A DNA stretch of 64,000 bases from Armatimonadota bacterium. Lineage in GTDB: Bacteria; Armatimonadota; UBA10988. Below are positions 7,052-61,069 of this stretch, piece by piece (positions within the stretch are counted from its first letter, which is position 1; each line of letters starts with the position of its first letter). Position numbers and translations under genes: made by a program. The stretch spans positions 1 through 64,000 of the forward strand of contig JACRKZ010000031.1 of the NCBI GenBank assembly GCA_016235455.1, read 5' to 3'. The notes under the pieces are model-generated. The model worked only from the letters and a program-made list of their open reading frames with translations. It searched no databases and was not told where the DNA came from.

Positions 7052-7068
7052 GGCTGGTCTCCTCGGCT

Positions 7069-7937: not shown

Positions 7938-7969
7938 GTACTGTCTCCCACCAGTTGTATGGCCGCATA

Positions 7970-9335: not shown

Positions 9336-9382
9336 GCGCCATGCCAGGCCCGGCGGCCGCGGCGCCCGTTGGGCCTGGTCGG

Positions 9383-19810: not shown

Positions 19811-19815
19811 CGCTG

Positions 19816-26097: not shown

Positions 26098-26124
26098 CGG
26101 CGCTTGGCACTGGGATGTAGAGTC

Positions 26125-35628: not shown

Positions 35629-35654
35629 GGCAGCCACCTCTCATGCCGCGGGGC

Positions 35655-41635: not shown

Positions 41636-42022
41636 GACTGCAGCCGCCGAACCCCATACTCCAGCGGGAGTTCGGGGACGGATGGCAATTACCGCAGTCC
41701 CGACCCTTTCTCGTTCGTCGTGTGTCTAACGGTCGGCGGGTGTGCCGGCCTCGGCGCCGGAGTCCGGATTTCCGGACACCGGCGTCGACCCGTTGAGGGG
41801 CTCGGTGTGAGCTCCTGAGGGAAATTGGCGTTTACGGGGCTCGTGAGTCGGGAATATGCACAATCAGTATAGGTACTCCTCGTTGAGCGCCTGGGGCCTC
41901 TCCGTGGCCCGCGACCGGTCTGCTCCCCCCTGGGCCGTCGCTGCCGCGGGTGTGCATTGTCTTGAGACCAAGACGACCCGACTCGAACACGCCCACAGCC
42001 GGACGGACAAGGGAGATCGGCC

Positions 42023-45000
42023 ATGCGTGTGAGGCGATCGAGCCTGGGTTGGAGCGTTCTGCTCCTGGTGTCGCTGGTGACGGCCGTCGCCGCGAAGACG
42101 TCGCATGAGTTCGTGGGGGCCCAGGGCCCGGCGTTCATGCGGGCGCAACTGCGCCAGGCCGGCTCTCGGCAGGTGGCGCCCACGGCCGACCACAACATCA
42201 CCCAGAGTGCCTCGGACAACATCGATCCCGTGTGGTCGCCCGACGGTACCCGTGTGGCCTTCGCCTCCAACCGCGCCGGCAGTTACGATATCTACATCGC
42301 TCGCTCGGACGGCTCGAATCCCGACACCGGCGCGCTGCTGACCCCCAAGCTGATCTCTGGCGTGGCCGGGGACGAGCGCTATCCCGCCTGGAACCCTGGT
42401 GGCCTGGACTTGGCCTACGTGCGCGGCAATGCCATCTACGTGCGCAACCTGCGCACCATGGCCGAGATCCAGCTGATCGACCAGCTCACCAACATCCAAG
42501 GCCTGACCTACAGCCCGGATGGTTCGCGCCTGGTCTTCTCCGCCCGCCTGGCCGGTGACTCCGATCTCAACCTGTACTGGGTGACCACTGACCCGCAATC
42601 CACCGACCCGGCCACCGGCAAGCCCCAGATGGTGCAGATCACCAATGCGGCGGGCAACGAAGTTCAGCCGAGCTGGTTCCCGAACTCCGACGCCGCGGAC
42701 GGGCGCCAAGTCATCTTCTCGTCGAACGCCAACGGCGACTACGACTTGTACCGCGTGACGCCGCCGACGGTCGGTGGTGCGCCGGTCGCCCTCACCGCGG
42801 CCAACCGCGTGCTGGGCAATGGCGGTGACGGTGACCAGTCGTATCCCTCTTGGGTGCGACCGGGCGGCTCTCGCGACGCCAGCTACGACCAGCCCTACTA
42901 CCTGCTGTATGCGGACAACGGCAACGGCAACTACGATCTGCGGGTCGTCGACGCCGACCTCGTGCCCGCGTCGGCGGTCGTGTACCAGGGCGCCGGCGAC
43001 CAGATTCAGCCGGTCGCATGCCCCATCCAGGACACAACCCACAATGCCTGCGTCTATTCGGGCAAGAAGACCGGCATCACCACGAACCAGCTGTTCGTGA
43101 TCGACATCTTCGACAACTCAGCGCCAATTCTGGGCGACGGCATCACCACCTCGCTGCCGTCGGTGAGCCCGCAACGCGGCTTCCCCGGCTCGACGGTCAC
43201 CATCACGGCCAAGGTCTACGACAAGGGCAGTGGCGTGGCTCCGGCGCCGATCGACTATGACGGCGACACCATCCCGGACTCTGGCGTGTGGGCCATCGTG
43301 CGCGTCGCTGACCGCCCGGTCTTCGCCAGGTGGACGACGGGCAGCACGGAAGTCCAGCCCAACCACATCAGCAACACCGTCTGGGCGCACGTTTCGAACA
43401 ACCAGATCGAGACCGACCAGGAGATTGTGGACATCCCGACCACCAGGCTGTCGGGGAACCTGACCACGGTACAGCCCAACGACCCCACCGAACTCGGGGC
43501 GGCCATCACTGGCCCGGGTGTCGCCTACCGTTTCACCACGCTGGATGCCATGTCCTTTGTGAACCGCGTCGGCCTGCCGTTGCGGGACGACGGTACGCAA
43601 GGCGACGCGGTGGCTGGGGATGGCATCTACACCGGCACCTGGCTGACCCCGGCGGAATCCCACGACTACTATGTGGACGTCGTGCCGGTCGATACCCGGG
43701 GCAACGCACCGGTGGACCCCGATCTGGGCATGGACGGTCTCGGCCGCACGAACCCGCTCGAAACCACATACCGCTACCCCGATGGTATTGCGACCTGCAT
43801 GGGGCCGTGGGCCATCGGCTATGACCACGTGGCGGGTTTCACCACTCGGCAACTGGACATCACGCGCAAGATTCTGCTCGTCAGCGACTACGGCTGCGGC
43901 CAGAAGTTCCAGGCCGCGGACTTCGCCACGACCGCCTCCGCGGCGCTGAGCCGCTACTGGCCGGTCGCGCTGCCAACAGAACACTATTGGTTCACCGATG
44001 ATGACGTGGCCGGCGCTGAGTCGATGACCGCCGCGCCGGTGATCACCTTCGGCAGCGGGGTCTCGGGCGTGCAGCGCACCATCGGCCCGAACCCCACGGT
44101 TTCAGCCGGCACACAAGTGCCAGACGGCCCCTGGTCGTGCGGCCCCTTCGCCCAGCTCAACGGCGGCGGCCAGCCCTTCGGCGGGCCGCAGGACGTTGAC
44201 CAGGTCGCCATCTGGCGGGTGCTCTGCCGCGGCCCGCTGGACGCTGGCACGCTCAACGCCTATACGCCAGCTCCGCTGGCCGCCGTTGAGGGCAGTCCCG
44301 TCCCGGCTCAGAACGGCGACCATATGGTCGTCTTCTCCAGCCCCTACACCGGCGATGTCTACGCGCAGCCAGGGACGCTCCTCGACGCCTCGACGCAAGC
44401 GCTGCTGCGTTCCTTCGTGGCCGCCGGCGGGCGCTTGGTCGTCAGCGGCATGGACATCGCCTGGGCGCTGACCAAGAACGGCACGCAGGCGAGTCCGTTC
44501 CTGCAGGATGTGCTCAAGGCGACGTTCATCTCGGATGCCACCCCGGGCGCGGTCAACTCACCGATCAGCGGCTATGACTCGGGCCGCACCCGCATGACAC
44601 CCCCGGATGCGCAGGGCGGCGTCGAGCCGCAGCTCTTCCAGTTCGGCGGCAGTCCGGTCGCTGCATCCATGACCGGGCGTCCGATGAACGCGGACGGGGG
44701 CGTCCCCGGCAACCTGGCCCTGCTGCGGATCAACGGCGGCGGCGACACACAGGGCGGCTGGCCTTTCTCGGGCGACGGCTGCCCGAACGCGTTCTTCATT
44801 GACAATGTCAGCCCCACTGGTGGCGGCCTGTCCACCTTTGACTACGCCGGCGGAGACGGCTCGGCCGCGGTCCGTTACATCGACCCGACAACCGGCTCGC
44901 GCGTGGTCTACTTCGCCTTCGGCCTGGAGTCGCTGCGGGCGGACTTCATCCTCCACGACCACAACCCCGCCCCCTACGTCGTCCATGGCATGGAGCATCG

Positions 45001-47452
45001 GGTCCGCCTGATGACCAACCTGAGCGACTACCTGCGCACGGGTGGCCTGCGCGGCAAGGTGGTCGACACGGACTCCTTGACCCCCATGGCCGGCATCACG
45101 GTCATCGCGCGCCGCGGCACGGGCACCAACGGCACCATCATGGGCCGGACCACCACGCTGTCCGACGGCACGTACCTCCTGGAAGGCCTGACGGTCGGCG
45201 ACTACGCGCTGTTCGTCCAGTCGGCGGAGTACACCGCCGACCACCGTCCGGTGCAGCGCGTCTACGGCGGCCAGGTCAGCCAGAACTCCGACCTGACCAT
45301 GCGCCTGCTGCGCTTTGAAACCTCCGCGCTGTACGGCACGGTGACCGGCCCGACCGGCACACCGGTGTCCGGCGCCACGGTCATTGCGTCGCTGGCCACG
45401 GCCGGCGCCAACCCGATGCAGGTGAGCACCACCACCGACACGGTCGGACAATACTCGTTGTCCGTGCCCAGCGGCACCTACACGCTGACCGCCAGCGCGG
45501 CGGGCTTCGCCTCGGCCACGCGCACCGACATCATCGTCGTGGCCGGCGCCGACCAGAAGCAGGACCTGCAACTCACGGCTTCACCGGGCGTGCTCACGGG
45601 CACGATCACCGGTAACGGCGCCGGTGTGGGCGGCGCCACCGTGGTGGCGACCAGCGGGGGCGTGACGGTCGGCAGCACCACCACCGCGGCGGATGGCACC
45701 TACACCATGTCCATCGCCGCCGGCACCTATGATCTGGTGGTCACGGCGCCCGGCTATCAGCAGGGCCGTAAGGCGGCCGTTGTGGTCACCAGCAGCGCCA
45801 CGACCACGGCCAATCTGGCCCTGACGGCGGTGGCGCCCGGCAGCATTGCCGGCCTGATCACCGTCCAGGGCTCCAACCAGGCGGTGGGCGGTGTCACGGT
45901 GTCCCTGCTGGCGGGCGGCGCGACGGTGCGCAGCACCACATCGGCTAGCACCACGACCACGCAGGGCGGCGTTACCTACAACTGGAAGATCGACGACGTG
46001 CCGGCCGGTCTATACGACGTGCGGGTGCAGGCGCCGGGCTACAACGCCCAGACCACCACGTCGGTGACGGTGACCAGCAACCAGTTGACGTCGGGCATCG
46101 ACTTCACGCTGCAGCCGCTGCACGTGTTCATCTCGTCGCTGTCCATGGCCTCGACGCCGTTCGACTACAGCACCTCGGCGCCCGACGCGCAGACGCTGAT
46201 CGACGACGACAACAATGCGGCCACCCCGCTCAAGATGGCGGCCTACAACACCGCCACGGCGGCCTACGCGTACTATCCGAACGCACCGGGCAGGACCTTC
46301 ACGCTGGGTCGCGGCTACTTCCTGAAGCTGGCCAACAACGCGGCACTGACCCGCGAAGGCGTCCGCGCGGCGACCACGGGCAGCGGCTACGATGTGCCTC
46401 TGCTCAACGGCTGGAACCTGATCGGCGCCGTCTACGAGTTCCCGGTTGATCTGTTCTCCTGCCAGGTGATCCTGGAGGTGAACGGTGCCGGCTCGACGGT
46501 CTACTCCTTCCAGGAGGCCGTGGCTCGCGGTCTGGTCGGTGGATCCATGTACACGCTGAACTTCGGTGTGTACCAGCAGGTCTACCGCTTCGACCCGTAT
46601 ACGGGCTACTGGCTGCGCGGCTACGTGCCGTCGGCGGCCACGACGCTCAAGCTGCGCGTCCCGCCGACGCCGCTGGGTGGTTCGTCCAACCGCGGCCGGA
46701 GCGCCGCGACGCCCACCGACTGGAAGGCGAGCATCGTCGCCAAGACCACGGACGGCGTGGCCTCACAGGCCACCTTCGGCGTGGGCGGCAACTCGGCTAC
46801 GGTGTACGACGGCGCGGACCGAGCCCAACCGCCGGCGCCGCCCGTGGCTGCTCAGTGGCTGGAGCTGGGCTTCCCGCACGCGGACTGGGGTCGCTACTCG
46901 GGGTCGTACCAGAGCGACATCCGTAGCGCGAGCCGCAGCCTGCGCTGGGAACTGGAGCTCAAGGGCGCCAAGCCGGGCCAGATGGTCAGCCTGAGCTGGC
47001 CGGAGCTGGGCGCCAACATACCGGGCAACCTGAGGGTCATCCTGGAGGACCTGCAGACGGGTGTGCGGCGCTCGCTGCGCCACACCAGCGGCTACACGGT
47101 CCGCGCCGACGGTAGTGCGCGGCGGCTGGCCATCATCGTCGAGCCGGCGGACAACCGCCCGGCGGTGACATCGCTGGCCTACACGGCGAGCCGCGCCGTG
47201 GGCGGCCAGGTGCACTTTACGCTCACCGCGGACCTGACTACCAACGTGGTGGTGCGTGGTCTGAACGGTGCGCTGGTCAAGACGCTGCTGCGCGATGAGG
47301 TGCTGACCGCCGGGCCCCAAGTGGTGGTCTGGGACGGCACCGACGACAGCGGCCGCGTGGCCCCCGACGGCACGTATCGACTCGAAGTGGTCGCCGTGGG
47401 CGACACGGGTGAGCAGGTACGGGCCACGACAACGGTTCGACAGCAGCGCTGA
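42023..47452 (+). CDS. Large secreted protein: PD40/TolB-like propeller, choice-of-anchor-X-like, carboxypeptidase-regulatory-like repeats, shared C-terminal module with FlgD-like Ig domain
   Basis: Signal peptide; PVWSPDGTRVAFASNR; LRDDGTQGDAVAGDGIYTG; four G.V......GA.V...T...G.Y...V..GTY repeats; terminal WDGTDDSGRVAPDGTY. Confidence 0.85.
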   Translation: MRVRRSSLGWSVLLLVSLVTAVAAKTSHEFVGAQGPAFMRAQLRQAGSRQVAPTADHNITQSASDNIDPVWSPDGTRVAFASNRAGSYDIYIARSDGSNPDTGALLTPKLISGVAGDERYPAWNPGGLDLAYVRGNAIYVRNLRTMAEIQLIDQLTNIQGLTYSPDGSRLVFSARLAGDSDLNLYWVTTDPQSTDPATGKPQMVQITNAAGNEVQPSWFPNSDAADGRQVIFSSNANGDYDLYRVTPPTVGGAPVALTAANRVLGNGGDGDQSYPSWVRPGGSRDASYDQPYYLLYADNGNGNYDLRVVDADLVPASAVVYQGAGDQIQPVACPIQDTTHNACVYSGKKTGITTNQLFVIDIFDNSAPILGDGITTSLPSVSPQRGFPGSTVTITAKVYDKGSGVAPAPIDYDGDTIPDSGVWAIVRVADRPVFARWTTGSTEVQPNHISNTVWAHVSNNQIETDQEIVDIPTTRLSGNLTTVQPNDPTELGAAITGPGVAYRFTTLDAMSFVNRVGLPLRDDGTQGDAVAGDGIYTGTWLTPAESHDYYVDVVPVDTRGNAPVDPDLGMDGLGRTNPLETTYRYPDGIATCMGPWAIGYDHVAGFTTRQLDITRKILLVSDYGCGQKFQAADFATTASAALSRYWPVALPTEHYWFTDDDVAGAESMTAAPVITFGSGVSGVQRTIGPNPTVSAGTQVPDGPWSCGPFAQLNGGGQPFGGPQDVDQVAIWRVLCRGPLDAGTLNAYTPAPLAAVEGSPVPAQNGDHMVVFSSPYTGDVYAQPGTLLDASTQALLRSFVAAGGRLVVSGMDIAWALTKNGTQASPFLQDVLKATFISDATPGAVNSPISGYDSGRTRMTPPDAQGGVEPQLFQFGGSPVAASMTGRPMNADGGVPGNLALLRINGGGDTQGGWPFSGDGCPNAFFIDNVSPTGGGLSTFDYAGGDGSAAVRYIDPTTGSRVVYFAFGLESLRADFILHDHNPAPYVVHGMEHRVRLMTNLSDYLRTGGLRGKVVDTDSLTPMAGITVIARRGTGTNGTIMGRTTTLSDGTYLLEGLTVGDYALFVQSAEYTADHRPVQRVYGGQVSQNSDLTMRLLRFETSALYGTVTGPTGTPVSGATVIASLATAGANPMQVSTTTDTVGQYSLSVPSGTYTLTASAAGFASATRTDIIVVAGADQKQDLQLTASPGVLTGTITGNGAGVGGATVVATSGGVTVGSTTTAADGTYTMSIAAGTYDLVVTAPGYQQGRKAAVVVTSSATTTANLALTAVAPGSIAGLITVQGSNQAVGGVTVSLLAGGATVRSTTSASTTTTQGGVTYNWKIDDVPAGLYDVRVQAPGYNAQTTTSVTVTSNQLTSGIDFTLQPLHVFISSLSMASTPFDYSTSAPDAQTLIDDDNNAATPLKMAAYNTATAAYAYYPNAPGRTFTLGRGYFLKLANNAALTREGVRAATTGSGYDVPLLNGWNLIGAVYEFPVDLFSCQVILEVNGAGSTVYSFQEAVARGLVGGSMYTLNFGVYQQVYRFDPYTGYWLRGYVPSAATTLKLRVPPTPLGGSSNRGRSAATPTDWKASIVAKTTDGVASQATFGVGGNSATVYDGADRAQPPAPPVAAQWLELGFPHADWGRYSGSYQSDIRSASRSLRWELELKGAKPGQMVSLSWPELGANIPGNLRVILEDLQTGVRRSLRHTSGYTVRADGSARRLAIIVEPADNRPAVTSLAYTASRAVGGQVHFTLTADLTTNVVVRGLNGALVKTLLRDEVLTAGPQVVVWDGTDDSGRVAPDGTYRLEVVAVGDTGEQVRATTTVRQQR

Positions 47453-47542
47453 CGCGCTGCCTGAAGGAAGCGAGCCGGGCCTGCCGAAATGGCTGGCGCG
47501 GGTCGCGGCGGAAGACTGAGCGAAGCTGCGAGGGAGTCTGAC

Positions 47543-49603
47543 ATGAGACTGGTCAAGCGATTGCGGCGGCATCCGCTGACTCGCCCACTGGCGTGGGCGG
47601 TGCAGCTTGCGCTGCTGGCAAGCACCGGCGTGCTGGCGCCGCCGGCGGCGGCACAGGATATCGAGGCGAAGCGCGCGGTAGTGCTGGACTTCGGCAACCT
47701 GGCCACGGCCTCGCCGTTGGCTGGCGACGAGGCGGCCGCAGCCTTGAGCTTGGCTCTGGTGCAGCGTCGCTACGAAGTCACGCCGCGCAGTGAGGTGCAA
47801 ACGCGCCTCAAGGCGATTGGCGTGCGCGCGCCGTTCGAGCCTGACGAGATCAAGCTCATCAAGAACGACCTCGACATTCGCGACCTGTACTCCGGCAGCG
47901 TGATCAGCGTGGACGAGAAGATCGGCGCCAAGTCCTCGGTCGAAGTGCTGCTGCGCGTCGAAGTCTACGACGGCGACACCGGCGACATGGTCAACGGTGG
48001 CTACGGCAAGGGCTTCGAGGTGCTGAACAGCGCCAACATCGCCGACCGTGAAGCTGGTTTGGCCAGCGCCATCGAGCGCGCCGTCGCGCAGGCCTTGACC
48101 CGCATCGATGCCCGCACCCTGATCCACGCCGCGGTCATGTCCTACGCCCCGCCGAACCGCGTGCTGATCAACAAGGGTCGCAAGCAAGGCGTGCTGGAAG
48201 GCATGGAGTTCAACGTCTTCCGCACCAAGGCCGATCCCGAAAACCCGAACCGCTCCCTCACGGTGAAGGTCGGCCGCGTCCGGGTGCATGAGGCGTCGAA
48301 CGACGATGCCACGGCCTCGGTCATCGAGATGACCCAGGGCATCAATACGCACGACGAGTTGCGCGAGGTCTTCCGCCTGCCGTCCATCTCCGCCAGTCAG
48401 GCGCAGTCAGGCAACCTGCCTGACCTGGGTCGGGCTCCGGCGCGCGGTGGCGCGGGCAACGGTGCGTGGCTAGCGCCCGTGGCTGGCGTCGTGGCCGGCA
48501 TCGGCCTGCTCGGCCTGCTAGTCGTGTTGGCCGGCACTTCGACCAGTGACTCGCCGTCGGCGCAGGCCACCGGGGCTTACCTCCGCCAGGCCGCGCCGGG
48601 CCAGAACCCGTCCGTGGAGGTGGCCTGGGGCGATCGCAACTACGCGCCGCCCAAGCGCTTCATTGGCGGCTACCTGCTGTACCGTGGCATCTCGCAGTCG
48701 TTCGCGGCGCTGACCGGCGACGCGGTGGGAGCGGTGCCTGGCGCCAACCAGCGCAAGTGGGCGGACGACCCGACCTGGGTGGACGTGACCACCACGATTC
48801 CGCTGCGCTACGAGCGCATCACCGCCACAGACGTGGAAGTGGTTGAGACGACGCTGGATGTGCGCATCGTGCACCAATCGCCGCAGCCGGGCAAGACCTA
48901 CTACTACAAGGTCCGGCGCCTCGGTCCGCCGATGGCGGCGACGGCACCGACCGTGTTCGCGCGCACCGCGACGGGTGGCAACCTGTCGTCACGGCTGAAC
49001 AGCCGCTCGGCGCAGATGCGCCAGGCCTCCGCCGGTCGCGTGCTGCGCAGTGGTGGCAACGTGCACATCTCGCGCGTTGGCCTGCCCATGATCACCCATC
49101 GCCAGGTGACCAGCATCGATCCGGGCGCGAACTACGACGCGACGCTCGACCCCACCGTCGACAATGACATCGTCATCGACACCGACATGGGTCTGTCCGA
49201 CGCGACGGTGGCCATGGGCCCGGTGACCTACATGGTGCCGCCGGACCTGTTGGCGCCGTCGAACAACAACATGGCCCAGCGCGTGGACGACATCGGCTTC
49301 TCGTGGCAGGGCGTTCTGGGCGCCACGCAGTACGTCGTGCAGATCGCCACGGATGCCGACTTCTCGGCCTTGGCGTTCTCCAGCGCGGCGATCGCGACGA
49401 CCTCCACCGGGCAGTTGTCGTTCCGCTACGACAGCACGGCGGCGGGCTACCGCGCGCTGGCGGCGAACACACAGTACTTCTGGCGAGTAGGCGCGAAGTC
49501 CACCTTCGGCGGTCAGCGGGCGCCCGAGCCCAACGGCTTCGTCTTCAGCCAGGTCTATACGTTCCAGACCGCGGACCAGCCGCCCAGCAACCCGCGCCGC
49601 TGA
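47543..49603 (+). CDS. Secreted CsgG/FlgT-like protein with internal hydrophobic helix and FN3-like domains
   Basis: Signal peptide to AAA-Q; AVVLDFGN alpha/beta domain; VLINKGRKQGV..GMEF.VFR..VGRVRV (FlgT-C-like); helix WLAPVAGVVAGIGLLGLLVVLA; PGKTYYYKV and ANTQYFWRVGA. Confidence 0.7.
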   Translation: MRLVKRLRRHPLTRPLAWAVQLALLASTGVLAPPAAAQDIEAKRAVVLDFGNLATASPLAGDEAAAALSLALVQRRYEVTPRSEVQTRLKAIGVRAPFEPDEIKLIKNDLDIRDLYSGSVISVDEKIGAKSSVEVLLRVEVYDGDTGDMVNGGYGKGFEVLNSANIADREAGLASAIERAVAQALTRIDARTLIHAAVMSYAPPNRVLINKGRKQGVLEGMEFNVFRTKADPENPNRSLTVKVGRVRVHEASNDDATASVIEMTQGINTHDELREVFRLPSISASQAQSGNLPDLGRAPARGGAGNGAWLAPVAGVVAGIGLLGLLVVLAGTSTSDSPSAQATGAYLRQAAPGQNPSVEVAWGDRNYAPPKRFIGGYLLYRGISQSFAALTGDAVGAVPGANQRKWADDPTWVDVTTTIPLRYERITATDVEVVETTLDVRIVHQSPQPGKTYYYKVRRLGPPMAATAPTVFARTATGGNLSSRLNSRSAQMRQASAGRVLRSGGNVHISRVGLPMITHRQVTSIDPGANYDATLDPTVDNDIVIDTDMGLSDATVAMGPVTYMVPPDLLAPSNNNMAQRVDDIGFSWQGVLGATQYVVQIATDADFSALAFSSAAIATTSTGQLSFRYDSTAAGYRALAANTQYFWRVGAKSTFGGQRAPEPNGFVFSQVYTFQTADQPPSNPRR

Positions 49604-49635
49604 GGACTGTCTAGGGCTTGGAGAGGAGCGCAGGC

Positions 49636-52600
49636 ATGCGGAAGGCACTGTTCTGGCTGATGGCGGCGACCGTAATGGTCGTCGCCCGGCCAGGGGCCGC
49701 CCAAACGACGGCCGATTGGACCGTGCTGGTCTACCTGAACGGTGACTCCACTGTCCGCTACGAGGACGCATCGATCCGCGTGTTCAACGCGCTGGAGCAG
49801 ATCGGCTCGACGCAGGCGGTGAACGTCGTCGTGCAGTGGGACCGCGGCCCTGGCGACGATGTGCTGACCGCGGCGAACCCCGCCGACGCCACGCAGGCCT
49901 GGGCCACCACGCGCCGGTACTTGGTGGTGGCGGACCCGGCCCAGACCGGCCTGACGCCGGACACGCTGACCGCCGCCGCGACGCGTATCGCCTCACCGGC
50001 CCTGGTCGACCTGGGCGAAGTGGACATGGGCCAGCAGGCGAGCCTGGTGGACTTCTACACCTGGACTGCCGCGCGCTTCCCCGCGCGTCACTATGCGCTG
50101 ATCCTGAGCGGTCCCGGCACCGGCTGGCAGCCGCGCAGCCAGCACCGTGGCATGCTGTTCGACACGACGACCGTGTCGACCGGCCCCACCGACCCGTCGG
50201 CCTTCCTGACCAATGCCGAGTTGACCGGCGCGCTGACCGCGATCAAGTCCCAGCGCAGCGGCCTGAACCTGGACGCCTTGCTGTGTGACACTGGCGGCAG
50301 CGCGACGGTCGAAGTCGCCACTCAGGCTACTGGGCTGGTGGACAGCTACCTGGGCGAGTTCCTCGATCGCAATGGCAACGGCGGCCTGAACTACGACACG
50401 CTGGTGTCCTCCCTGAACACGGCGCTGCCGTTGACGGCGGCCACGGTGCAAACCTGGCTCGGCAGTGTAGCCACGACCTACCTGGGCTCCTATGGCACCG
50501 GCACGGCGCGGCTGGGTGGCGCCCAAAGCGTGACTGCGGGCGTGTACCGCATGGGCAACCTGCCCAGCTTGGTAACCGCCTGCGATGACCTGGCCAAGGC
50601 GCTGGATGCCGACCTGCTGACCACGGCACCGGGATTGTTCCGGGTGCTCAGTACGGTCCAGCGTGGTCGCCCTGCTGACTTCAGCGGAGACTACATTGAC
50701 CTCAAGCACTTCGCTGAGCTGTGCCAGACTGAGTTCGCGGCCACCCAGACCATCGTTGACGCCGCGACGGCGCTGATCTCCGCGGTCACCGCGGTCCAGG
50801 CGGGCGACGTGACCGCCGCTTCCGCCGCCACCGACATCGATGTGTCGAATTTCAACGGTGTGGCCGTGTACTTCCCGGGAGAGCTGGCGGCCTACGACAG
50901 CAACTACCCGACGGGCTGCGACTTCGGGCAGACAGAATGGCCGACCCTGATCCAGGGGCTCTACACGCTCTACTCGGATCGCAACCCGCCGGTGATCACC
51001 CTGATCACCCCGACCAACGGCACCACCATCCTTGAGAATCCGCCGACGATTCAGGTGTCCATCGTGGACCCCGACGCCATCGGCGGTGTCAACGCGGACT
51101 CGGTCTCGTTGACCTTCGACGGGGTCGTCGTGCCCAAGGCCAACTACAGCTTCAGCAGCGAGACGGGCGTTCTGACCTACACGCCGGCCAACGCGCTCGG
51201 CGCCACCAGCCACACGTTCATCGTGGGGGCCAGTGACCTGAGCGGTAATGCCGCGACGCCCACGACAGGCAACTTCCGCATCTCCGTGGCGACCTTGTCG
51301 ACGGGGATCCAGACGTTCTCGTTGCCTCGCCTGCTGACCGCCGCTCAGAACGATCCGGGCCTGGTCTTCGGCGCCAGCAACTTCGCCATGGCACGCTGGG
51401 TGCCTGGGCTCAGCGGGTCGGACAAGTACCGGCTGTACCCCGATAGCTATGCTTCGTTCCTGCCGCCCGACTGCAGCACCAGCGTGTCGAACCCCGTCGT
51501 CACGCGGGCGCCGGCGGGGCTGGGCTACTGGGTCAGGGTGAAGCAGTCCAGGCCGTTGCAGACGTTGCCCGGCACGCCGGTCACGCTCTCGGAGTACGGG
51601 ATTCGGCTGCTCACCGACGGCAGTTCGCCGAACTGGAACATGGTGGCCAACCCCTATGACACGCCGGCCATCTCCTTGGCCAGCGCTTTCATCCAGTTGG
51701 TCGACGGACGGCGCCTGACGTTCCGTCAGGCTATCGACCAGCGGTACACACCGGGTGTGCTGTTCAGCTACGTGCCCAATGAGAGCAACGCCAACGCTCC
51801 GGGGCGCTACGACTTCAGTGACGCGGGCGCCGGCCAACTGATCCGGCTTCAGGCGCACTGGCTCAAGGTCAACACGGCCTGCTCCTTGGTGGTGCAATCC
51901 GGTCTTTCGTCCCGCGCGGCCGTACCGAGCGCTTCGGCCCGGGCCCTGCCGCGCGACGGTTGGAGCCTGGCGCTGTGGGCCACGGCTGACAGCAAGGCCA
52001 ACGCCTATTCGGACGGCCGAGCCTATGAAGCCAAGGACCGTCTGGTGCTGGGCCAGTCCAGCGATGCGCAGAATGGCTACGACCATGCCTTGGACGTGGC
52101 CGGGCCGCCGGCCATGCCGGGCGGTGTCGCGCTGCGTGCCGTCCACGGCGACTGGGGCCTGGAGAGCGGGCGCTACGTGCGGGACTACCGCGCCGCCGGC
52201 ATGAGTACGGAGTGGGACGTCGAGGTCGCGGCGCCGGCCGGCGAAGTGAGCCTGACGTGGCCCGACCTGCGGGCGGTGCCGGGCGACATCGACCTCGTGC
52301 TGACCGACCTGACCAACGGTCAGTCGCGAGCGCTGCGCACAACCGCCAGCTACGGCTTCACGCACAGCGGTGGCCCGCGGGCGTTCCGCGTGACGGCGCA
52401 ACGGCGCAACGGCGCCGGCCTGTTGGTGACCAACGTCACCACGCAGTCCGGTCGCGGCGGCGACTCCGTGGATATCGGCTACACGCTCTCTCGGGCGGCG
52501 AGTGTGCACGTCCAGGTGACGAGCCTGAGTGGCCGTTCGCTGCGCTCGCTCGGCCCGGTTGACTCCGCCACGGGTCGCGGTCGCTTGGCCTGGGACGGGT

Positions 52601-52713
52601 GCGATGCCAACGGTCGACCGGTGCCCAACGGCATCTACGTGTTGCAGGTGGTCGCGACGGGCGCGGACGGGTCCTTGGCTCGAGAGCTTCGCACGGTTCG
52701 CGTGATGCGGTAG
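49636..52713 (+). CDS. Secreted clostripain (C11)-like pseudoprotease with shared C-terminal module and FlgD-like Ig domain
   Basis: WTVLVYLNGD, VNVVVQWDR, GEVDMG, FPARHYALIL; His/Cys positions read SGPG and DTG; terminal WDGCDANGRPVPNGIY. Confidence 0.8.
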   Translation: MRKALFWLMAATVMVVARPGAAQTTADWTVLVYLNGDSTVRYEDASIRVFNALEQIGSTQAVNVVVQWDRGPGDDVLTAANPADATQAWATTRRYLVVADPAQTGLTPDTLTAAATRIASPALVDLGEVDMGQQASLVDFYTWTAARFPARHYALILSGPGTGWQPRSQHRGMLFDTTTVSTGPTDPSAFLTNAELTGALTAIKSQRSGLNLDALLCDTGGSATVEVATQATGLVDSYLGEFLDRNGNGGLNYDTLVSSLNTALPLTAATVQTWLGSVATTYLGSYGTGTARLGGAQSVTAGVYRMGNLPSLVTACDDLAKALDADLLTTAPGLFRVLSTVQRGRPADFSGDYIDLKHFAELCQTEFAATQTIVDAATALISAVTAVQAGDVTAASAATDIDVSNFNGVAVYFPGELAAYDSNYPTGCDFGQTEWPTLIQGLYTLYSDRNPPVITLITPTNGTTILENPPTIQVSIVDPDAIGGVNADSVSLTFDGVVVPKANYSFSSETGVLTYTPANALGATSHTFIVGASDLSGNAATPTTGNFRISVATLSTGIQTFSLPRLLTAAQNDPGLVFGASNFAMARWVPGLSGSDKYRLYPDSYASFLPPDCSTSVSNPVVTRAPAGLGYWVRVKQSRPLQTLPGTPVTLSEYGIRLLTDGSSPNWNMVANPYDTPAISLASAFIQLVDGRRLTFRQAIDQRYTPGVLFSYVPNESNANAPGRYDFSDAGAGQLIRLQAHWLKVNTACSLVVQSGLSSRAAVPSASARALPRDGWSLALWATADSKANAYSDGRAYEAKDRLVLGQSSDAQNGYDHALDVAGPPAMPGGVALRAVHGDWGLESGRYVRDYRAAGMSTEWDVEVAAPAGEVSLTWPDLRAVPGDIDLVLTDLTNGQSRALRTTASYGFTHSGGPRAFRVTAQRRNGAGLLVTNVTTQSGRGGDSVDIGYTLSRAASVHVQVTSLSGRSLRSLGPVDSATGRGRLAWDGCDANGRPVPNGIYVLQVVATGADGSLARELRTVRVMR

Positions 52714-52714
52714 G

Positions 52715-55612
52715 ATGGTAAGCATGAAACGGCCCAAGCACACAATCCTGGCCCTGTTCGCCTGCCTGGCTGTGGCTGGCTCGGTCTCGGCGCAGACCTA
52801 CCAGACCATCAGCGGGACAGCGACGAACTCGCAGCCCGGGACGTTGTTCTCCACCGTGCGCAACAACTACCTCCAGGTGGACGTGCGCGTGCCGGGCATC
52901 GTGCCCGTGGTCAATCCCGGAGGCACGACGGGTCCCACGCTCGTTGGCTACAGCAACTACCGTGGTGGCCGGGCCTGGATCAGCACCGTGCAAGGCGATC
53001 CGTTCACCGCCAACGACAACGGTGTGCGCATCGCCGGGCCGACCGCCTACTCGACATGGTGCGGGGTGCAGTTGCAGGATCTGCCCACGCCGGCCGATGA
53101 CACGCCGGCGATTGAGTACCATGAGTGCGAGACCAGCTACGAGCCGGTGAACAATCCGAACCAGGACATCTTCTCGCAGTACCCGACGGCGAGCAACGAT
53201 GAGGTCCGGTTTGCCTGGCAGATCCGCAAGGACCTGCCCTCGCTGACAACCATCCACGCCAACCCAAACGTGGCCACCAACGGTGGTCTGGCGGGCGTGA
53301 ACTCCGCTGTGCAGTGCCTCGTGTCGCAGTCCTATCGGCTGGTCGGCGACAAGGTTCGCGTCGAGATGCTGGTCCAGAACGTCAGCAATGCCAGCGTGCG
53401 CATCGGCGGGCACATCTACATCAACCCGACCTTTGGCAGCGGCGTGCGCAACGGTGATCGGTTCCACTTCCAAGGCGTCAAGCAGACCATCGACCACGAA
53501 ATTACATTCCCCTCGACCAATGCCGCGGACGACCCGTCGTTGCGTCGCATCCCCACCTTCTACCGTACCTTCGACGATGAAGCCGCCCCGTCGGTCATTC
53601 TGGGTGGCCTGTTCGACGGCGCCGACATCCGGACGACGGCGTTGAGCGCCGGCCCGCCCACGAGCGCCATGCTGGTCGACCAGAACCTGATCACAGGCAA
53701 CTGGTTCGCCTACACGCCGGCGTCGGGCAGCCTGATCGGCGCCAACTTTGGCATCATGCTGCGCTGGGCTCCGACCTTGGTCGCCCCCAACTCGGGACGT
53801 CGGTTCATCACCTACTACGGCCTGGGCGGCACGGATGCCGACTACGACCAGCCGTACATCTTGTCCGCCGAGGCGCCGTTCAGCCTGTCGCTGGCCAATG
53901 GCGACGACCCCAACACCACCTTGGTGGAGACCAGCGACAATGTGTACCGGGCGCCGAACCCGTTCACCGTTCGCGCCTCCGTCTTCAACACCTCGGATCG
54001 GGCCATCAGCAATGTGGCCGTGGCGCTGTCGCTGCCGGCCGGCATGAGCCTGGCCAGCGCCGGAGACACGCTCAGCAAGTCCATTGGGCTCGTTCCCGCG
54101 AGGTCCGAGCAGGTGGTGAGTTGGCAGGTCAAGACGACATCGACCCTCGAGCCGGGCGTGCGGACAGTGTCCGTGTCGTCTTCCGGCACCAGCCTGACAT
54201 CGAAGATCGTGGACCGCGAGATCGGCATTCCGGCGCTGCCGCAACTGCTCTTCCCGAACGTCGCCAGGCGACTGGACATGATCTCGGTGCCCTACGATTT
54301 TGCCAACCGCGACATCCAGCACGTGCTCAACTCGTTGGGCACGGTCGGAGTGACCGGCGGCGGCAACGCGGCGGTAGCTCGCTACAATGCCGCGGCGCGC
54401 TCGTACGGGTACTTCCCGGATCCCTATATCACCAGTGTGGTCCCGGGCGAAGGCTTCTGGCTCTTCAATGGCGCTCTGACAGACCTGCGGCTGCCCACCG
54501 ACAAGGCCCAGTTGCCGCTGGCGCAGTCGGTGTCGGTGGCGCTGAGTACCGGCTGGAACCAGATCGGCTGCCCATTCACGGTGCCGGCACGGCTGTATGA
54601 CTGCGAAGTGGTGGGCAGCGACGGCATCGTCCGCAGCTTCCTCGATGCGGTCGGCGCGGGCCAGGTCAAGCCTGTCGTCTACGAGTACCAGCCCAACGAC
54701 CTGAACCCCACGGCCCAGGGCAGTTATCTGTTCGCCGGCGATGACGCCACCATGCTCAACCCGTGGCGCGGGTACTGGCTGCGTTCGCTGACGGACGTGA
54801 ACCTGGTCTTCAACGCCAACTCCCTGGTCGGACCGTTCCGCTCCAGCGGTCGCAGCCCATTGGCGCTGCGCGGCGGTTGGGAGTGCGCGCTGTCCGCTGA
54901 CTCGCCCAACACGGGCAAGCGCCCGGTGCGCCTGGGCTGCGATAGCACCTCGCTGGATGGCTACGACAGCCGCGACGTTGAGGCGCCGCCCACGCTGCGC
55001 TCCGAGGGCGACCTGCGCCTCTCGGTGCTGCGTGAGGACTGGGGTCGCGACGCCGGCCGCTACATGCGTGATATCCAGTCGGGCACTCGAGCGCAGACGC
55101 GATGGCGCCTGCTGGCCGAGTGTGACCGGGCCAACGAGGACGTGACGCTGCGGTGGAACCTGCGGACGGTGCCGGCCGATGTGCAGCTCACTTTGGTCGA
55201 CCTGGAGACGGGGGCCCAGCGGCACTTGCGCACGACCTCGGCCTTCAGCTACAACACAGGTGCGACGCCGCGGCCGCGGCTGTTCGAGGTGATTGCCACC
55301 AAGGGCGGCGGCCAGGGGCTCAGCATCCCATTCATGCAGGTGGCTGGCACGCGCGGTCGCGCGGTGACCGTGGCTTTCGGCCTGACCTCGGCCGCGACGG
55401 TCGACGTTGTGATCGAAAGCCCGACCGGGCGACGGGTGAAGCTGGTTGCTGCATCAATGGCTGCCACGGAAGGTCAAAACAGTGTATCCTGGGACGGCCT
55501 TGACGAAGGGGGCCGCCCGGTGCCTGCTGGGATGTACCGTTGCCGGGTGCTGGTTTCGACGCCGGATGGCCAACGGGCCATCGCTGAGCGTCTGGTGCGG
55601 ATTGGCCGGTAA
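52715..55612 (+). CDS. Secreted protein with shared C-terminal module and FlgD-like Ig domain
   Basis: Signal peptide; Ig-like middle region; GWNQIG.P, GYWLR, WGRDAGRY.RDI; terminal WDGLDEGGRPVPAGMY. Confidence 0.8.
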   Translation: MVSMKRPKHTILALFACLAVAGSVSAQTYQTISGTATNSQPGTLFSTVRNNYLQVDVRVPGIVPVVNPGGTTGPTLVGYSNYRGGRAWISTVQGDPFTANDNGVRIAGPTAYSTWCGVQLQDLPTPADDTPAIEYHECETSYEPVNNPNQDIFSQYPTASNDEVRFAWQIRKDLPSLTTIHANPNVATNGGLAGVNSAVQCLVSQSYRLVGDKVRVEMLVQNVSNASVRIGGHIYINPTFGSGVRNGDRFHFQGVKQTIDHEITFPSTNAADDPSLRRIPTFYRTFDDEAAPSVILGGLFDGADIRTTALSAGPPTSAMLVDQNLITGNWFAYTPASGSLIGANFGIMLRWAPTLVAPNSGRRFITYYGLGGTDADYDQPYILSAEAPFSLSLANGDDPNTTLVETSDNVYRAPNPFTVRASVFNTSDRAISNVAVALSLPAGMSLASAGDTLSKSIGLVPARSEQVVSWQVKTTSTLEPGVRTVSVSSSGTSLTSKIVDREIGIPALPQLLFPNVARRLDMISVPYDFANRDIQHVLNSLGTVGVTGGGNAAVARYNAAARSYGYFPDPYITSVVPGEGFWLFNGALTDLRLPTDKAQLPLAQSVSVALSTGWNQIGCPFTVPARLYDCEVVGSDGIVRSFLDAVGAGQVKPVVYEYQPNDLNPTAQGSYLFAGDDATMLNPWRGYWLRSLTDVNLVFNANSLVGPFRSSGRSPLALRGGWECALSADSPNTGKRPVRLGCDSTSLDGYDSRDVEAPPTLRSEGDLRLSVLREDWGRDAGRYMRDIQSGTRAQTRWRLLAECDRANEDVTLRWNLRTVPADVQLTLVDLETGAQRHLRTTSAFSYNTGATPRPRLFEVIATKGGGQGLSIPFMQVAGTRGRAVTVAFGLTSAATVDVVIESPTGRRVKLVAASMAATEGQNSVSWDGLDEGGRPVPAGMYRCRVLVSTPDGQRAIAERLVRIGR

Positions 55613-55639
55613 TCAAGGATGAAGCGGAAGGACGGTCGC

Positions 55640-58600
55640 ATGATGAAGCGCTTTCTCGAGTCGCCCCTGGCGCGGCGCATCGCCTGGATGACCCTGACGG
55701 CACTGGCGGTCGGGTTGATAGGTCCGGCCGCACAGCGCGCCGACGCGCAAGAGGCGGTTCGCGGCGCCTACTTCGTGCCGTTCACGGCGGCCGAAGGCGT
55801 GGATGCTGAGACCCCCGTGCGCATTGGCAACGGCACCGCCGAACTGCTGCAGCGCATGAGCGGAGACCCGCGAGCGAAGCAGCCTTTGGCTGTGCTGCCG
55901 GTGGTTCCGGCGCTGGATGGCCATGCGTCTCTGAGCCCCAGCAACCCGATCGTCAAGCGCGCTCTGAGTGAGTCGGCGATCACCCAGGAGGAAGTCGACA
56001 GTCCTCCGACCGCCGCCGAGCCGGCAGCCGCTCTGTGCCGCAAACTCGGCCTCGGCTATGTCATTACCGGCAACATCGACCGCTACAAGGAAGGCCCCGG
56101 CGCGGACGGCAAGAGCCAGGTCGCCGAGCTGTCCTACACGGTCAAGCTGACCGAGGTGCTGCCCGAGGGTGCCGTGGCGCAGCCCCGGACCGTGCCGATC
56201 AGCGGCGTCAGCAAGTACACGGCGACCACCGACAAAGACAAGATCATCCTCCGGGCCATCCTGACCGACCGTGTCTCCCGCGAGATCGTCTCTCAGCTCA
56301 TTGAGTTGCCGGAACTGGCGCCTGAGCCCCAGACCGAGGTGCAGGTCAAGCCCAAGCCGGCCAAGGGCAGCAACGCCTGGGCCTATGCGGGCGTCGTGGT
56401 GGCGGGCATCGCCTCCATCTTCCTGATCTCCACCATCGGCGGCGGCAAGACCAAGGCACCGGCCAACCTGGCGGTGACGGGCGTGGCCGCGGTATCCGAA
56501 CAGGACGCGGTACGCATCACCTGGCTCCAGGCGCCGGCGGCGATCGGTTACAACGTGTATCGTCGACAGGTAGGCAGCCAGCCGTTGGTGTCGAGGGCCC
56601 TCCGCGGGCGCACCACGGCTGACGGCTTCACCGTGTTGCCCAATCCGCAGACCAACAGTGTGCCGACCGTGGTTGGCGGCAACCGGACCTCCTTCATCGA
56701 CACCACGGCCGTCAGCGGCGTGGTGTATGAGTACGCCGTGGCGGGCATGAACGCCAGCAACGTGCTTGGTGCTCGCTCCAGCTCCACGACGGCGGCCCGC
56801 ACGGGCGCCAACATCGGCGCCGCGCCGCAGTTGACGGCCTCGGCCGGCAACGGCTTCGTCTCCCTGAACTGGAGCGCCAGCAGCGCCTTTGTGACCGGCT
56901 ACTTCGTGTACCGGCGCCAGGGCGGCGTGCCCGACACCGTGACCGCGGCCGACCGCGTAGCCACGGTGACCGGCCGCACGACGTTCGACGACACGCCGTT
57001 GACCAACGGGGTGGAGTACACCTACGTGGTGCAGCCGTACACGCAGATCGGTACCGGCCAGAAGTTGATCGGCACGGACAGCAACCGCGTGACGATCGCG
57101 CCGATGGCTGGCGCGCCGCCGCAGGCCCCGCGCGGGGTGGCGGCCGTGGCCAGCAACCTCGGTGTGGTGACGGTCTCGTGGCAGTTCAACGCCGAGCCGG
57201 TGGCCTCCTATGAGGTGCTCCGACTGCGTGAAGCCACGACCCGGCAGCGCACGGTGACCGGCAGTTCCTCGTGGCTGCGTGGTCTACCCGTGGACTTGGC
57301 GGCGCGCGCGCAGACCGTACGCGTCGACCCGCGTCGGTCGCGCCAGATCGACCTCACTGGCTACAGTGTGGTGGGCAGTGTGCCCAGCACGCAGAACAGC
57401 TTCGTTGAAGGGCCTCTGCCCGACGGGCTCTACACCTACGCAGTACGCGCGGTGAGCAGCACCGGCGTGCGCGGCCCGGTGGGCGTGAGCACGGCGCTGA
57501 CGGTCTCGTCGCCGCCGGCGGCTCCGGCCGGAGTGACCGCTACTGGTCAGTCCGGGGCGGTGCTGGTAGCCTGGCAGAGCGCTGCCGGCAACGTGAGCGC
57601 CTATCGCGTCTACCGTAGTCTGACGGCCATCACCGCGTCGATGACCGGCCCCGCCACGGCGCCGGGCATCTCCCGCGTGACCGAAGTCAATCCGAGCGTC
57701 ACGTCGTTCAGCGACACCGGCGTCACCAACAATACCGTGTACTACTACGCGGTGACGGCGGTGGGCCAGGGCGGCACGGAGAGCCTGTTCGGCAAGGGCA
57801 CGGCGACCACGACCGGTGCGGTGGGCGTGCCCCACGCGGCGCCGGCCACGATGACGCTGGCCACCGACCGGCCGCTCATCTCGGCCAACGGCATGCACAC
57901 GGCGGCCATCACGGCCACCGTGCAGGACCTGAGCAGTATCGCGGTGCCGGGTGTCGAGGTCATCGTCACGGCGGACCGTGGCAGCTTCAAGGCGCCCCTG
58001 CCGGCCAACGCCAGCTACGTCGACGCCACGAAGCGTCAGGTTCGCTCGCTGACGGACGCCACGGGCAAGGTTGTGCTGAACTTCATGTCGGAAGTCATCA
58101 CGACTGCCGCGACGCAGGTGGTGGCCAATATCCAGGCCCGCGCCGCGGAGCTTCCGGTAGCGCAGCAACTGCAGTCGACCAGCGTGGCGATGCAGTCGTC
58201 CGCGCCGAGTGTGCTGCTCATGAGCCCCGCGCTGGTGTCGCTGACGGCCGACCAAGCTTCCACCCAGACGGTGGCGGCACGGGTCCTGGACAGCCTGAAC
58301 CAGCCGGTGCCTGACGGCACGTTCTCGGTGGACTTCAGCCTCAGCGCCGACAACGGCGAGTTGCGTCAGTCGGGCGACGTGCAGACCTATCCGTTCCAGC
58401 GCTACCCGACCACCATCACGGTGCCGGTGACCACCGGTCGAGCGACCATGGTGTACCGCGCCGGCCCGGCCAGCGGCACGTTGCAGATCAACGCGGCGGT
58501 GGCGGGTCTGCCCGCCGTAGCCTCGTCGGCGACGGTCCGGCTGTCGGCTGGTGAAGCGACGCAGGTGTCGTTCAGCCAGACCGGCACGACGCTGAACCAG

Positions 58601-58858
58601 TTGAACGTGCCGGTCAGCGGCTCGCAGGCCATCACGGTTGACGTGCGCGACGCGCAAGGCAACCGGGTGGGCGCGGGTGTGGCCGTGCAGTTGGCTGTGG
58701 AGCCGACGGGTGTGGTCACGATCCCGGCCTCCGGCGTGACCGACGCCAATGGCCAGGTTGCCCTGAACATCACCGGCGGCGCAGTCGTCGGCGATGCGAT
58801 CATCACGGCAACCGCCGGCACGTCGGCGGAAGGCCAGTTGGCAGTCCATGTGCGCTAG
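55640..58858 (+). CDS. Secreted protein: CsgG-like N-domain, internal hydrophobic helix, about 4 FN3 and about 3 invasin-type Big_1 domains
   Basis: LCRKLGLGYVITGNI; helix AWAYAGVVVAGIASIFLISTI; FN3 motifs (GYNVYRR, F.DT.V.N.T.YYYAVTAV); Big_1 motifs (ISANG...AITATVQD, VRDAQGN.V, TDANGQV). Alternative start 55619. Confidence 0.75.
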   Translation: MMKRFLESPLARRIAWMTLTALAVGLIGPAAQRADAQEAVRGAYFVPFTAAEGVDAETPVRIGNGTAELLQRMSGDPRAKQPLAVLPVVPALDGHASLSPSNPIVKRALSESAITQEEVDSPPTAAEPAAALCRKLGLGYVITGNIDRYKEGPGADGKSQVAELSYTVKLTEVLPEGAVAQPRTVPISGVSKYTATTDKDKIILRAILTDRVSREIVSQLIELPELAPEPQTEVQVKPKPAKGSNAWAYAGVVVAGIASIFLISTIGGGKTKAPANLAVTGVAAVSEQDAVRITWLQAPAAIGYNVYRRQVGSQPLVSRALRGRTTADGFTVLPNPQTNSVPTVVGGNRTSFIDTTAVSGVVYEYAVAGMNASNVLGARSSSTTAARTGANIGAAPQLTASAGNGFVSLNWSASSAFVTGYFVYRRQGGVPDTVTAADRVATVTGRTTFDDTPLTNGVEYTYVVQPYTQIGTGQKLIGTDSNRVTIAPMAGAPPQAPRGVAAVASNLGVVTVSWQFNAEPVASYEVLRLREATTRQRTVTGSSSWLRGLPVDLAARAQTVRVDPRRSRQIDLTGYSVVGSVPSTQNSFVEGPLPDGLYTYAVRAVSSTGVRGPVGVSTALTVSSPPAAPAGVTATGQSGAVLVAWQSAAGNVSAYRVYRSLTAITASMTGPATAPGISRVTEVNPSVTSFSDTGVTNNTVYYYAVTAVGQGGTESLFGKGTATTTGAVGVPHAAPATMTLATDRPLISANGMHTAAITATVQDLSSIAVPGVEVIVTADRGSFKAPLPANASYVDATKRQVRSLTDATGKVVLNFMSEVITTAATQVVANIQARAAELPVAQQLQSTSVAMQSSAPSVLLMSPALVSLTADQASTQTVAARVLDSLNQPVPDGTFSVDFSLSADNGELRQSGDVQTYPFQRYPTTITVPVTTGRATMVYRAGPASGTLQINAAVAGLPAVASSATVRLSAGEATQVSFSQTGTTLNQLNVPVSGSQAITVDVRDAQGNRVGAGVAVQLAVEPTGVVTIPASGVTDANGQVALNITGGAVVGDAIITATAGTSAEGQLAVHVR

Positions 58859-59058
58859 CCGCGGTGGCTAGCGACCAGAGCGCCGGGCCTCGGTTCACCG
58901 AGTCCCGGCGTTCGTGGTTTGTGTCGCCGAGTCGAGGGCGCACACCCTCTGGCGCGGAGCGCGGCGGGAAGGTACAATTCGGTGGGCGGCCAAGGTCGCT
59001 CATGCTGCCTGGCCCACCTGATGATGGTGCCGCTGGGCAGGGGTGGAGAGGCGGCTTG

Positions 59059-61056: not shown

Positions 61057-61069
61057 TGGGAGGGCTGTC

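Follow-up and report, generated by a model that had tools for sequence, protein, structure and literature searches.

The shared C-terminal block and the proteins that carry it

The DNA analysed here is a stretch of 64,000 nucleotides from an Armatimonadota bacterium (contig JACRKZ010000031.1, hereafter the window), with a G+C content of ~69%. Seven closely packed genes occupy its + strand from 42.0 to 61.9 kb, downstream of an rpsA-like gene (39992-41635) and separated from each other by gaps of 2-37 nt; no terminator-like site was found on the + strand from 41500 to 61400. Three of these genes code for the proteins P0001, P0002 and P0003 (types P1, P2 and P3 where relatives are compared), which end in a common block of about 440 residues, called the module below; the products of the other four genes were named P4 to P7.

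P0001 (42023-47452, +; 1809 aa) comprises a signal peptide, PD40/TolB-like propeller repeats, a choice-of-anchor X region, four CarboxypepD_reg repeats and the module. P0002 (49618-52713, +; 1031 aa), whose start is probably the ATG at 49636, has a signal peptide, a clostripain (C11)-like domain and a Big domain ahead of the module, and P0003 (52715-55612, +; 965 aa) a signal peptide and a head of no known family with an NPCBM_assoc-like domain. The N-termini of all three are signal-peptide-like; here and below, signal peptides and transmembrane segments were judged by eye from the translations and not by a predictor. Close relatives of P0003 are found in Fimbriimonadaceae and in metagenome-assembled genomes (MAGs) of Armatimonadetes.

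The similarity of the three proteins is limited to their last 440-475 residues, as indicated by pairwise BLASTP (P0001/P0002, E 5e-26, 114/392 identical or 29%; P0001/P0003, E 1e-32, 137/468 or 29%; P0002/P0003, E 3e-41, 119/370 or 32%). The second-best high-scoring segment pairs of the three comparisons were not significant (E 2.5, 0.28 and 0.86), and because all of them have E >= 0.28 the heads of the three proteins are considered unrelated. When the 536 open reading frames (ORFs) of the window, taken in six frames, were compared to a profile of the block, exactly three copies were found, with borders at 46130-47449, 51286-52710 and 54263-55609. The original prediction, made from the letters of the window, held that the same motifs recur in the same order on three unrelated secreted proteins, and they do indeed form conserved columns in the three-way alignment: S.P, Y..YP, G.GYW, WN.I, GYWLR/AHWLK, YD..D...PP and DWG..G.Y..D.R, followed by V.L.W, L.L.DL..G..R.LR.T and WDG.D..GR..P.G.Y.

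Three domains in the module

An AlphaFold2 model of the P0003 tail, built on an alignment of 30 sequences, is all beta and falls into three blocks (pLDDT 88, pTM 0.73), from which the domain borders were taken: D1 of ~185 aa, D2 of ~150 aa and D3 of ~95 aa. In P0001, D1 (46130-46672, +; aa 1370-1550) is a beta-sandwich with the motifs G.GYW, GWN.IG.P and GYWL, D2 (46709-47158, +; aa 1563-1712) a beta-sandwich with GYD..D...PP, DWG..G.Y..D.R and L.L.DL.TG..R.LR, and D3 (47165-47449, +; aa 1715-1809) an FlgD_ig domain with Arg as its last residue. The domains of P0002 were placed by the alignment and by a per-domain BLAST comparison at 51286-51906 (D1, +; aa 557-763), 51946-52416 (D2, +; aa 777-933) and, as an FlgD_ig domain, 52426-52710 (D3, +; aa 937-1031). 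Those of P0003, placed by the alignment, the AlphaFold2 model and the per-domain comparison, lie at 54263-54823 (D1, +; aa 517-703), 54863-55315 (D2, +; aa 717-867) and 55325-55609 (D3, FlgD_ig, +; aa 871-965).

Each domain taken alone is significantly similar between the paralogs (D1, E 1e-3, 1e-10 and 3e-9; D2, E 9e-21, 9e-17 and 4e-21; D3, E 4e-12, 3e-13 and 1e-16), so that the likeness reaches well beyond the last ~100 residues, as had been claimed. The D1 pair of P0001 and P0002 reaches 23.9 bits, barely above the best of the 30 shuffles made for each pair (<=22.7 bits). The possibility that D1, D2 and D3 are diverged repeats of a single domain was ruled out by hhalign, which gave probabilities of 0.2, 0.2 and 1.7%.

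No match to D1 or D2 was found in Pfam (2025 copy) or NCBIfam 20.0, even when the 30 members were searched at E <= 1, nor among PDB sequences at E <= 10. The ESM Atlas returned nothing but unnamed clusters for D1-D2. Conserved positions in both domains are rich in aromatics and Gly/Pro, the aromatics being Y48, Y65, W98, Y155, Y171 and W172 in D1 and W6, W60, W81 and W98 in D2. D1 and D2 are thus two distinct and so far uncatalogued families. In agreement with the initial proposal, the module as a whole is no already-described domain, given that D1 and D2 are without a match to described families, and no description of it was found in the literature on FlgD Ig-like domains, on type IX secretion or on Armatimonadota.

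When the model of the whole module was compared to the PDB with Foldseek, only generic tandem Ig/FN3 arrays were returned, with TM-scores <=0.2; these included GH2 accessory domains, adhesin repeats and C5a peptidase. In the BFVD database the model matched over its whole length the 587-aa 'putative hemin binding protein' A0A8D9C8P8 of an uncultured marine phage (E 4.4e-14, TMq 0.49), which could be of bacterial origin and have been binned as viral; the other BFVD matches were generic.

D3 and the sorting domain of type IX secretion

D3 exceeds the gathering cut-off of FlgD_ig (PF13860, 27 bits) in all three window proteins (33-46 bits: 33.4-39.1 in P0001, 42.4-46.4 in P0002 and 34.1-39.0 in P0003), and PF13860 matches 28 of the 30 members of the module alignment. 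Searched against the PDB, the 30-sequence profile found FlgD (7eh9_A, E 3.2e-10) and the C-terminal domain of PorU (6za2_A, residues 1082-1151, E 9.5e-4). Although D3 matches solved FlgD structures, the proteins are without the FlgD N-terminal region and without flagellar genes nearby, and they carry Sec signal peptides and large unrelated heads. The FlgD_ig match reflects a shared fold family, not hook assembly.

The second family of interest is the type A C-terminal domain (CTD) of type IX secretion systems (T9SS), known as Por_Secre_tail (PF18962, cut-off 27 bits; TIGR04183, cut-off 23 bits). Like D3, it is an Ig-like beta-sandwich of ~90 aa that forms the very end of Sec-exported proteins whose heads vary. 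Genuine Por_Secre_tail domains follow D1-D2 in Bacteroidota-like proteins, from lineages that possess a T9SS: they score above the cut-off in P0149 (42.8 bits, VWA head), in P0168 (42 bits, Kelch and VWA head) and at the Cyclobacteriaceae locus L063 (31.6 bits), and below it after D1-D2 in P0150 and in WOR-3 and Marinimicrobia proteins. Weak, sub-threshold matches to CHU_C, the type B CTD, are shown by several of the latter as well and were seen only in relatives from Bacteroidota and Marinimicrobia. A profile of D3 aligned over 62 columns with that of seven Por_Secre_tail-matching C-termini, three above and four below the Pfam cut-off (hhalign 96.9%, E 2e-10). With the NCBIfam models of CTD-bearing proteins, D3 gave weak matches, confined to the CTD part and far below the cut-off, to PorU in all three window proteins (E 0.0035-0.067) and to PorZ in two of the three.

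In all three window proteins D3 runs up to the stop codon, and of 151 aligned tails 122 finish in Arg and 5 in Lys. A basic residue conserved in this way at the free C-terminus agrees with recognition of the end of the chain. Taken together, these comparisons place D3 within the FlgD_ig/T9SS CTD superfamily and in the same position as the CTD, yet outside the T9SS CTD family when tested with the family's own models. The third slot of the module is interchangeable, being filled by an FlgD_ig-type or by a true T9SS-type tag according to lineage.

Distribution, arrangement and heads of the module

The D1-D2 profile was searched against 1.84 billion cluster representatives and matched 6957 of them at E<=1e-3; of these, 3457 had E<=1e-10 and 499 had E<=1e-30. 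Among 170 proteins matching the full profile, the end of D3 was reached in 160, and in 157 the protein ended <=10 residues later. The 157 heads of >=80 aa fell into 13 clusters (57, 51, 29, 9, 2 and 2 members and seven singletons), the three largest being of the P0003, P0001 and P0002 types; the P0003 type is the most widely conserved of the three. Sampled heads contain S8 and C13 peptidase domains, alkaline phosphatase, VWA, Kelch and FG-GAP/ASPIC domains, as well as Laminin_G, cadherin-like and BNR domains, C11-like domains and PD40 propellers. The view of a portable C-terminal cassette on variable, unrelated heads is therefore borne out by the 157 of 170 C-terminal positions and the 13 head clusters.

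In a FastTree phylogeny of 151 tails, the modules group by head family: 42 of the 48 P1-type tails fall in a split of 47 tips, 21 of 24 P2-type tails in one of 23 and 48 of 53 P3-type tails in one of 53. As the tails branch according to head family, the window's three copies are ancient paralogs and not the outcome of recent shuffling. The cassette is ancient, widespread and almost always C-terminal, and its divergence has gone hand in hand with that of the heads.

Patterns of the P0002 family, run over 185,579 species genomes, yielded 74 loci, of which 41 are labelled Armatimonadota; the others carry the labels WS1, Abditibacteriota, Marinimicrobia, Bacteroidota, WOR-3, Nitrospirae, Desulfobacterales, Chloroflexota or simply 'bacterium'. 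They contain 122 ORFs with any domain of the module, arranged as D1-D2-D3 in 93, D1 alone in 8, D1-D2 in 7, D2 alone in 5, D3 alone in 4 and otherwise in 5.

In Nitrospirae/Thermodesulfovibrionia, D1 ends one protein and the module is split between adjacent genes. The D1-ending gene and the next gene lie at 7649-10252/10256-11059 and 14532-16871/16875-17495 in locus L066, at 4892-6541/6538-7194 in L070 and at 21-3050/3047-3796 in L056. The sequences of L066 and L070 were read, and there the gene following the D1-ending protein codes for a signal peptide of its own and then D2. These split proteins suggest that D1 and D2 interact.

The head of P0002 (49618-51270, +) matches the C11 family PF03415 with 32.6 bits (cut-off 25.8). 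At the presumed sites of the catalytic His (H-G) and Cys (D-A-C) motifs of C11, it reads LSGPGTGW and CDTGGS; some relatives keep DHG.GW, and the Cys is shown by none of them. This C11-like head is probably a pseudo-peptidase. In the WS1 loci the second module protein carries an S8 head. C11 peptidases are related at the clan level to gingipain-type peptidases, and gingipains have an immunoglobulin-superfamily (IgSF) domain ahead of the CTD. A search of the ESM Atlas with the P0003 head led to a cluster named 'cellulosome anchor protein', to be taken as no more than a lead. PDB sequence searches with P4, P6 and the P0002 head found no match.

Genes next to the module proteins

P4 (47489-49603, +; 704 aa) lies between P0001 and P0002 and has a signal-peptide-like N-terminus, an FlgT_C-like domain, a transmembrane-like segment at about aa 325-350 and an FN3-like C-terminus. 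P5 (55619-58858, +; 1079 aa) has the same type of layout, with a signal-like N-terminus, a transmembrane-like segment at about aa 253-275, FN3 repeats and Big_1/Invasin_D3. In both, a domain of ~200-270 aa (the FlgT_C-like one in P4) precedes the strongly hydrophobic segment, with FN3 and Big_1 behind it. Once the signal peptide is cleaved, FN3 and Big_1 would come to lie in the cytoplasm, an unusual arrangement.

P6 (58864-61056, +; 730 aa, 626 aa in the window's own gene call) consists of Big_1, a beta-jellyroll and a large barrel and ends in ...NQF. The top 15 PDB entries found by Foldseek with its AlphaFold2 model (pLDDT 72.8) are all LptD (E 1.8e-13 to 8e-10), aligned over jellyroll and barrel in 700-760 columns, and FimD/PapC ushers come next (~1e-6). 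P6 differs from LptD in its extra N-terminal Big_1, present in 25/25 relatives according to Pfam, and in that the Pfam LptD barrel model matches neither P6 nor any of the 25 relatives; LptD_N was found in 2/25 at E>=0.004. P6 may be the divergent lipopolysaccharide (LPS) translocon of Armatimonadota. Armatimonadetes encode core LPS genes, according to the available part of PMC5007114.

P7 (61070-61915, +; 281 aa) has a signal peptide and is a small outer-membrane barrel related to PorV/PorQ/FadL, ending in ...ANF; the listed ORF starts at 60827 and overlaps P6, and the start at 61070 is likelier. It matches PorQ (E 1.5e-11), and its distant relatives match PF19572 (PorV) or PF03349 (FadL), some being named PorV/PorQ family. 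A complex prediction of P7 with the P0003 module gave a score of 0.00 (mark 0.32), which says nothing either way.

The complete seven-gene cluster is also present in L001 and L010 and, on truncated contigs, in L002 and L006. A five-gene form (P1 type, P4, second module protein, P3 type, P6) occurs in many loci, and a minimal form in ten loci (rpsA, P4-like, detected by tblastn in 4/10, one module protein and P6-like). In 28/74 loci, tblastn detected a P6-like gene downstream of the final module gene and in the same orientation; by phmmer it was found in 20 of the 32 Armatimonadota-labelled loci with >=2.5 kb of downstream DNA and, outside this group, in 4/19 (WS1, Abditibacteriota and two unlabelled loci). 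The cassette genes of Armatimonadota thus belong to a conserved cluster that also encodes an FN3 protein anchored in the membrane and an outer-membrane barrel resembling LptD, joined in this window by a PorV/PorQ-like barrel. In 12 loci the P6-like gene is followed by an ORF of ~600 aa with no NCBIfam match and no relative in the window.

Proposed role of the module

By analogy with T9SS cargo, the module is best read as a surface-display and anchoring cassette in which D3 would be the tag and D1-D2 a pedestal or adaptor, a reading to which we would give about an even chance. In its favour are the three distinct all-beta domains, the kinship of D3 with FlgD_ig and the PorU CTD, the true T9SS tags found in the same slot, the terminal position with its Arg end, the wide spread over many heads, and a tightly spaced cluster in which P6 matches LptD and P7 the PorV/PorQ family. 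The T9SS CTD is an Ig-like signal for translocation across the outer membrane, and PorV/PorQ barrels hold the CTD-bearing PorU and PorZ, as described in the available part of PMC8545088. On this model, cassette-bearing proteins would be exported by Sec, and D3 would then behave as a type IX CTD, that is, as a tag recognised by outer-membrane barrels for surface passage or retention. Between this tag and the functional head, D1-D2 would stand as a rather rigid pedestal or adaptor. In the window this would place a propeller protein, a C11-like protein that appears to be inactive and a protein of unknown fold next to one another on the outer membrane. No result implies sortase chemistry. A sorting or anchoring role had been proposed for the entire block; it is borne out in part, D3 being the only one of the three that is related to a known sorting or retention domain. 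The block of ~440 aa is several times longer than a CTD, as stated, but it is not one extended CTD, since two new domains precede a D3 of CTD size.

The neighbourhood also resembles the PorU-PorZ-PorV-PorQ complex of P. gingivalis, in which CTD-type proteins with varied heads occur beside PorV/PorQ-like barrels (PMC8545088, available part). Here too a PorV/PorQ-like barrel is encoded in the cluster, one head is a propeller (as in PorZ) and one has a peptidase-like fold (as in PorU), although that of P0002 is apparently without the His/Cys motifs of C11 and other lineages have an S8 subtilase in its place.

Several observations weigh against the display model. The sorting role of D3 is an analogy with the T9SS CTD, and D3 is not counted as a member of that family because the window copies miss the curated T9SS models: TIGR04183 matched P0002 alone, with 14.3 bits (E 0.031) against a cut-off of 23, and neither PF18962 nor CHU_C (PF13585) gave a match at E <= 10. 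In the Abditibacteriota MAG locus L037, which has a syntenic cluster (rpsA, P4-like, two proteins, P6-like), both of these proteins (4730-7114 and 7118-9367) end directly after D1, without D2 and D3, and D3 is therefore dispensable there. P7 stays below the 90-bit cut-off of the PorV/PorQ family NF033709 (52.2 bits, although significant at E 6.7e-14), as do its orthologs in L001 and L010 (46.4 and 58.6 bits, E 3.8e-12 and 7.6e-16), and P7-like genes were found in these two loci and this window only. The P6 model is of moderate quality with a Foldseek TM-score of ~0.3, phmmer missed a P6-like gene in 12 of the 32 Armatimonadota-labelled loci (3 of the 12 were recovered by tblastn), and the link to P6 could be an inherited gene order beside rpsA rather than a functional one. 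Moreover, no T9SS core gene (SprA/Sov, PorK/L/M/N, PorU or PorT) was detected in the 30 ORFs scanned of the 64-kb window. The phylum is not known for T9SS: no T9SS of Armatimonadota was reported in the literature found, where the co-mention of both concerns Bacteroidota xylanases, and the Fimbriimonas genome paper, in its available part, lists LPS genes, type II and type IV secretion systems and Tat, and no T9SS (PMC4072686).

The failure of D3 to reach the T9SS cut-offs would also be expected if D1-D2-D3 were only structural beta-sandwich spacers, holding the heads off the membrane or wall with no sorting or docking. The generic tandem Ig/FN3 arrays found by Foldseek (TM-scores <=0.2) and the wealth of FN3 and Big_1 in the neighbours P4 and P5 agree with such a passive stalk. 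Spacer repeats usually vary in number and order, however, whereas D1-D2-D3 is the fixed order in 93 of the 122 ORFs that hold a domain of the module. In addition, 157 of 170 proteins end with the unit, Arg closes 122 of 151 tails, and the third slot swaps with a true sorting domain. We therefore consider a mere stalk unlikely.

Alternatively, D1 and/or D2 might bind a ligand in the manner of a carbohydrate-binding module (CBM), tethering the protein to a cell-surface glycan or LPS or aiming it at a polymeric substrate. Their conserved positions, rich in aromatics and Gly/Pro, would suit this, as would the many hydrolase heads and the polysaccharide-degrading genes in which the window is rich; PorZ, a CTD protein, binds A-LPS (PMC8545088, available part). 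In Pfam and the PDB, though, neither domain is similar to any family of CBMs or lectins, the conserved aromatics may be core residues and the heads include non-enzymes; we regard ligand binding as quite unlikely.

Least probable of all is the suggestion of polymerisation, S-layer or filament docking, by which the modules would make the three proteins co-assemble as a lattice or filament: in its favour are the three paralogous, co-transcribed modules, the fibril form of peptidase Vpr as top PDB match of Foldseek (8jmw_A, E 3.1e-6, TM-score 0.2) and the D1 and D2 of Nitrospirae on separate neighbouring proteins, which suggests D1-D2 binding, but self-association found no support in this analysis, many genomes have a single module protein in the cluster, and the sole S-layer match (NF052345, Kustd1514 S-layer, 68.7 bits against 1400) lies outside the module, at the CarboxypepD_reg repeats of the P0001 head (aa 1189-1352).

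The surface-display model can be carried further, into a reading that we regard as very unlikely, in which the cluster would be a compact analogue of the T9SS attachment complex, coupled in Armatimonadota to a divergent LptD-like LPS translocon. Its parts, in an assembly much to be doubted, would be the D3-keeping propeller, peptidase-fold and universal P3-type proteins together with the PorV/PorQ-like barrel and the LptD-like translocon. There is a faint chance that the D1-D2 adaptor docks these parts, by which LPS export and surface tethering would be physically coupled, and it is equally improbable that D1-D2 is a new docking module older than the split between FlgD_ig-type and Por_Secre_tail-type tags. 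The reading is weakened because the C11-like head of P0002 is apparently without the His/Cys motifs of C11, with an S8 head in its place in other lineages. Armatimonadota are a Terrabacteria phylum.

What is new here is that D1 and D2, conserved in thousands of protein clusters, are absent from Pfam and NCBIfam, that they precede an FlgD_ig-type or a true T9SS-type tag according to lineage, and that the Armatimonadota cluster includes an LptD-like barrel. If the proposed role is correct, the module would offer a handle on outer-membrane decoration in poorly studied diderm phyla, two new domain families for annotation and a hint as to where T9SS-type tags came from. If it is only a stalk, a useful domain definition would remain, with ordinary biology.

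Other genes in the window

Polysaccharide-degradation genes are abundant in the upstream half of the window (1-35637). They include an RGL11 rhamnogalacturonan lyase (1-1524, -), and in the same region are two beta-helix proteins (5273-7195 and 10227-12980, both -, CBM6 being present in the second), a sulfatase (14098-15501), a CBM9-like protein (26104-28107) and an alpha-L-fucosidase (34357-35637, -). The GldK/PorK model matched the product of 17243-19975 (-) with E 4e-26 and 92 bits against a cut-off of 350; this match comes from a generic FGE-sulfatase domain in a 910-aa fusion of GH71 and FGE-sulfatase and was rejected as a T9SS lead. The highest G+C content of the window (76%) is found at 38-40 kb, and this most G+C-rich stretch contains a PolA-like ORF (37529-39748, +; 739 aa) with a 5'-3' exonuclease domain and a partial DNA_pol_A domain.

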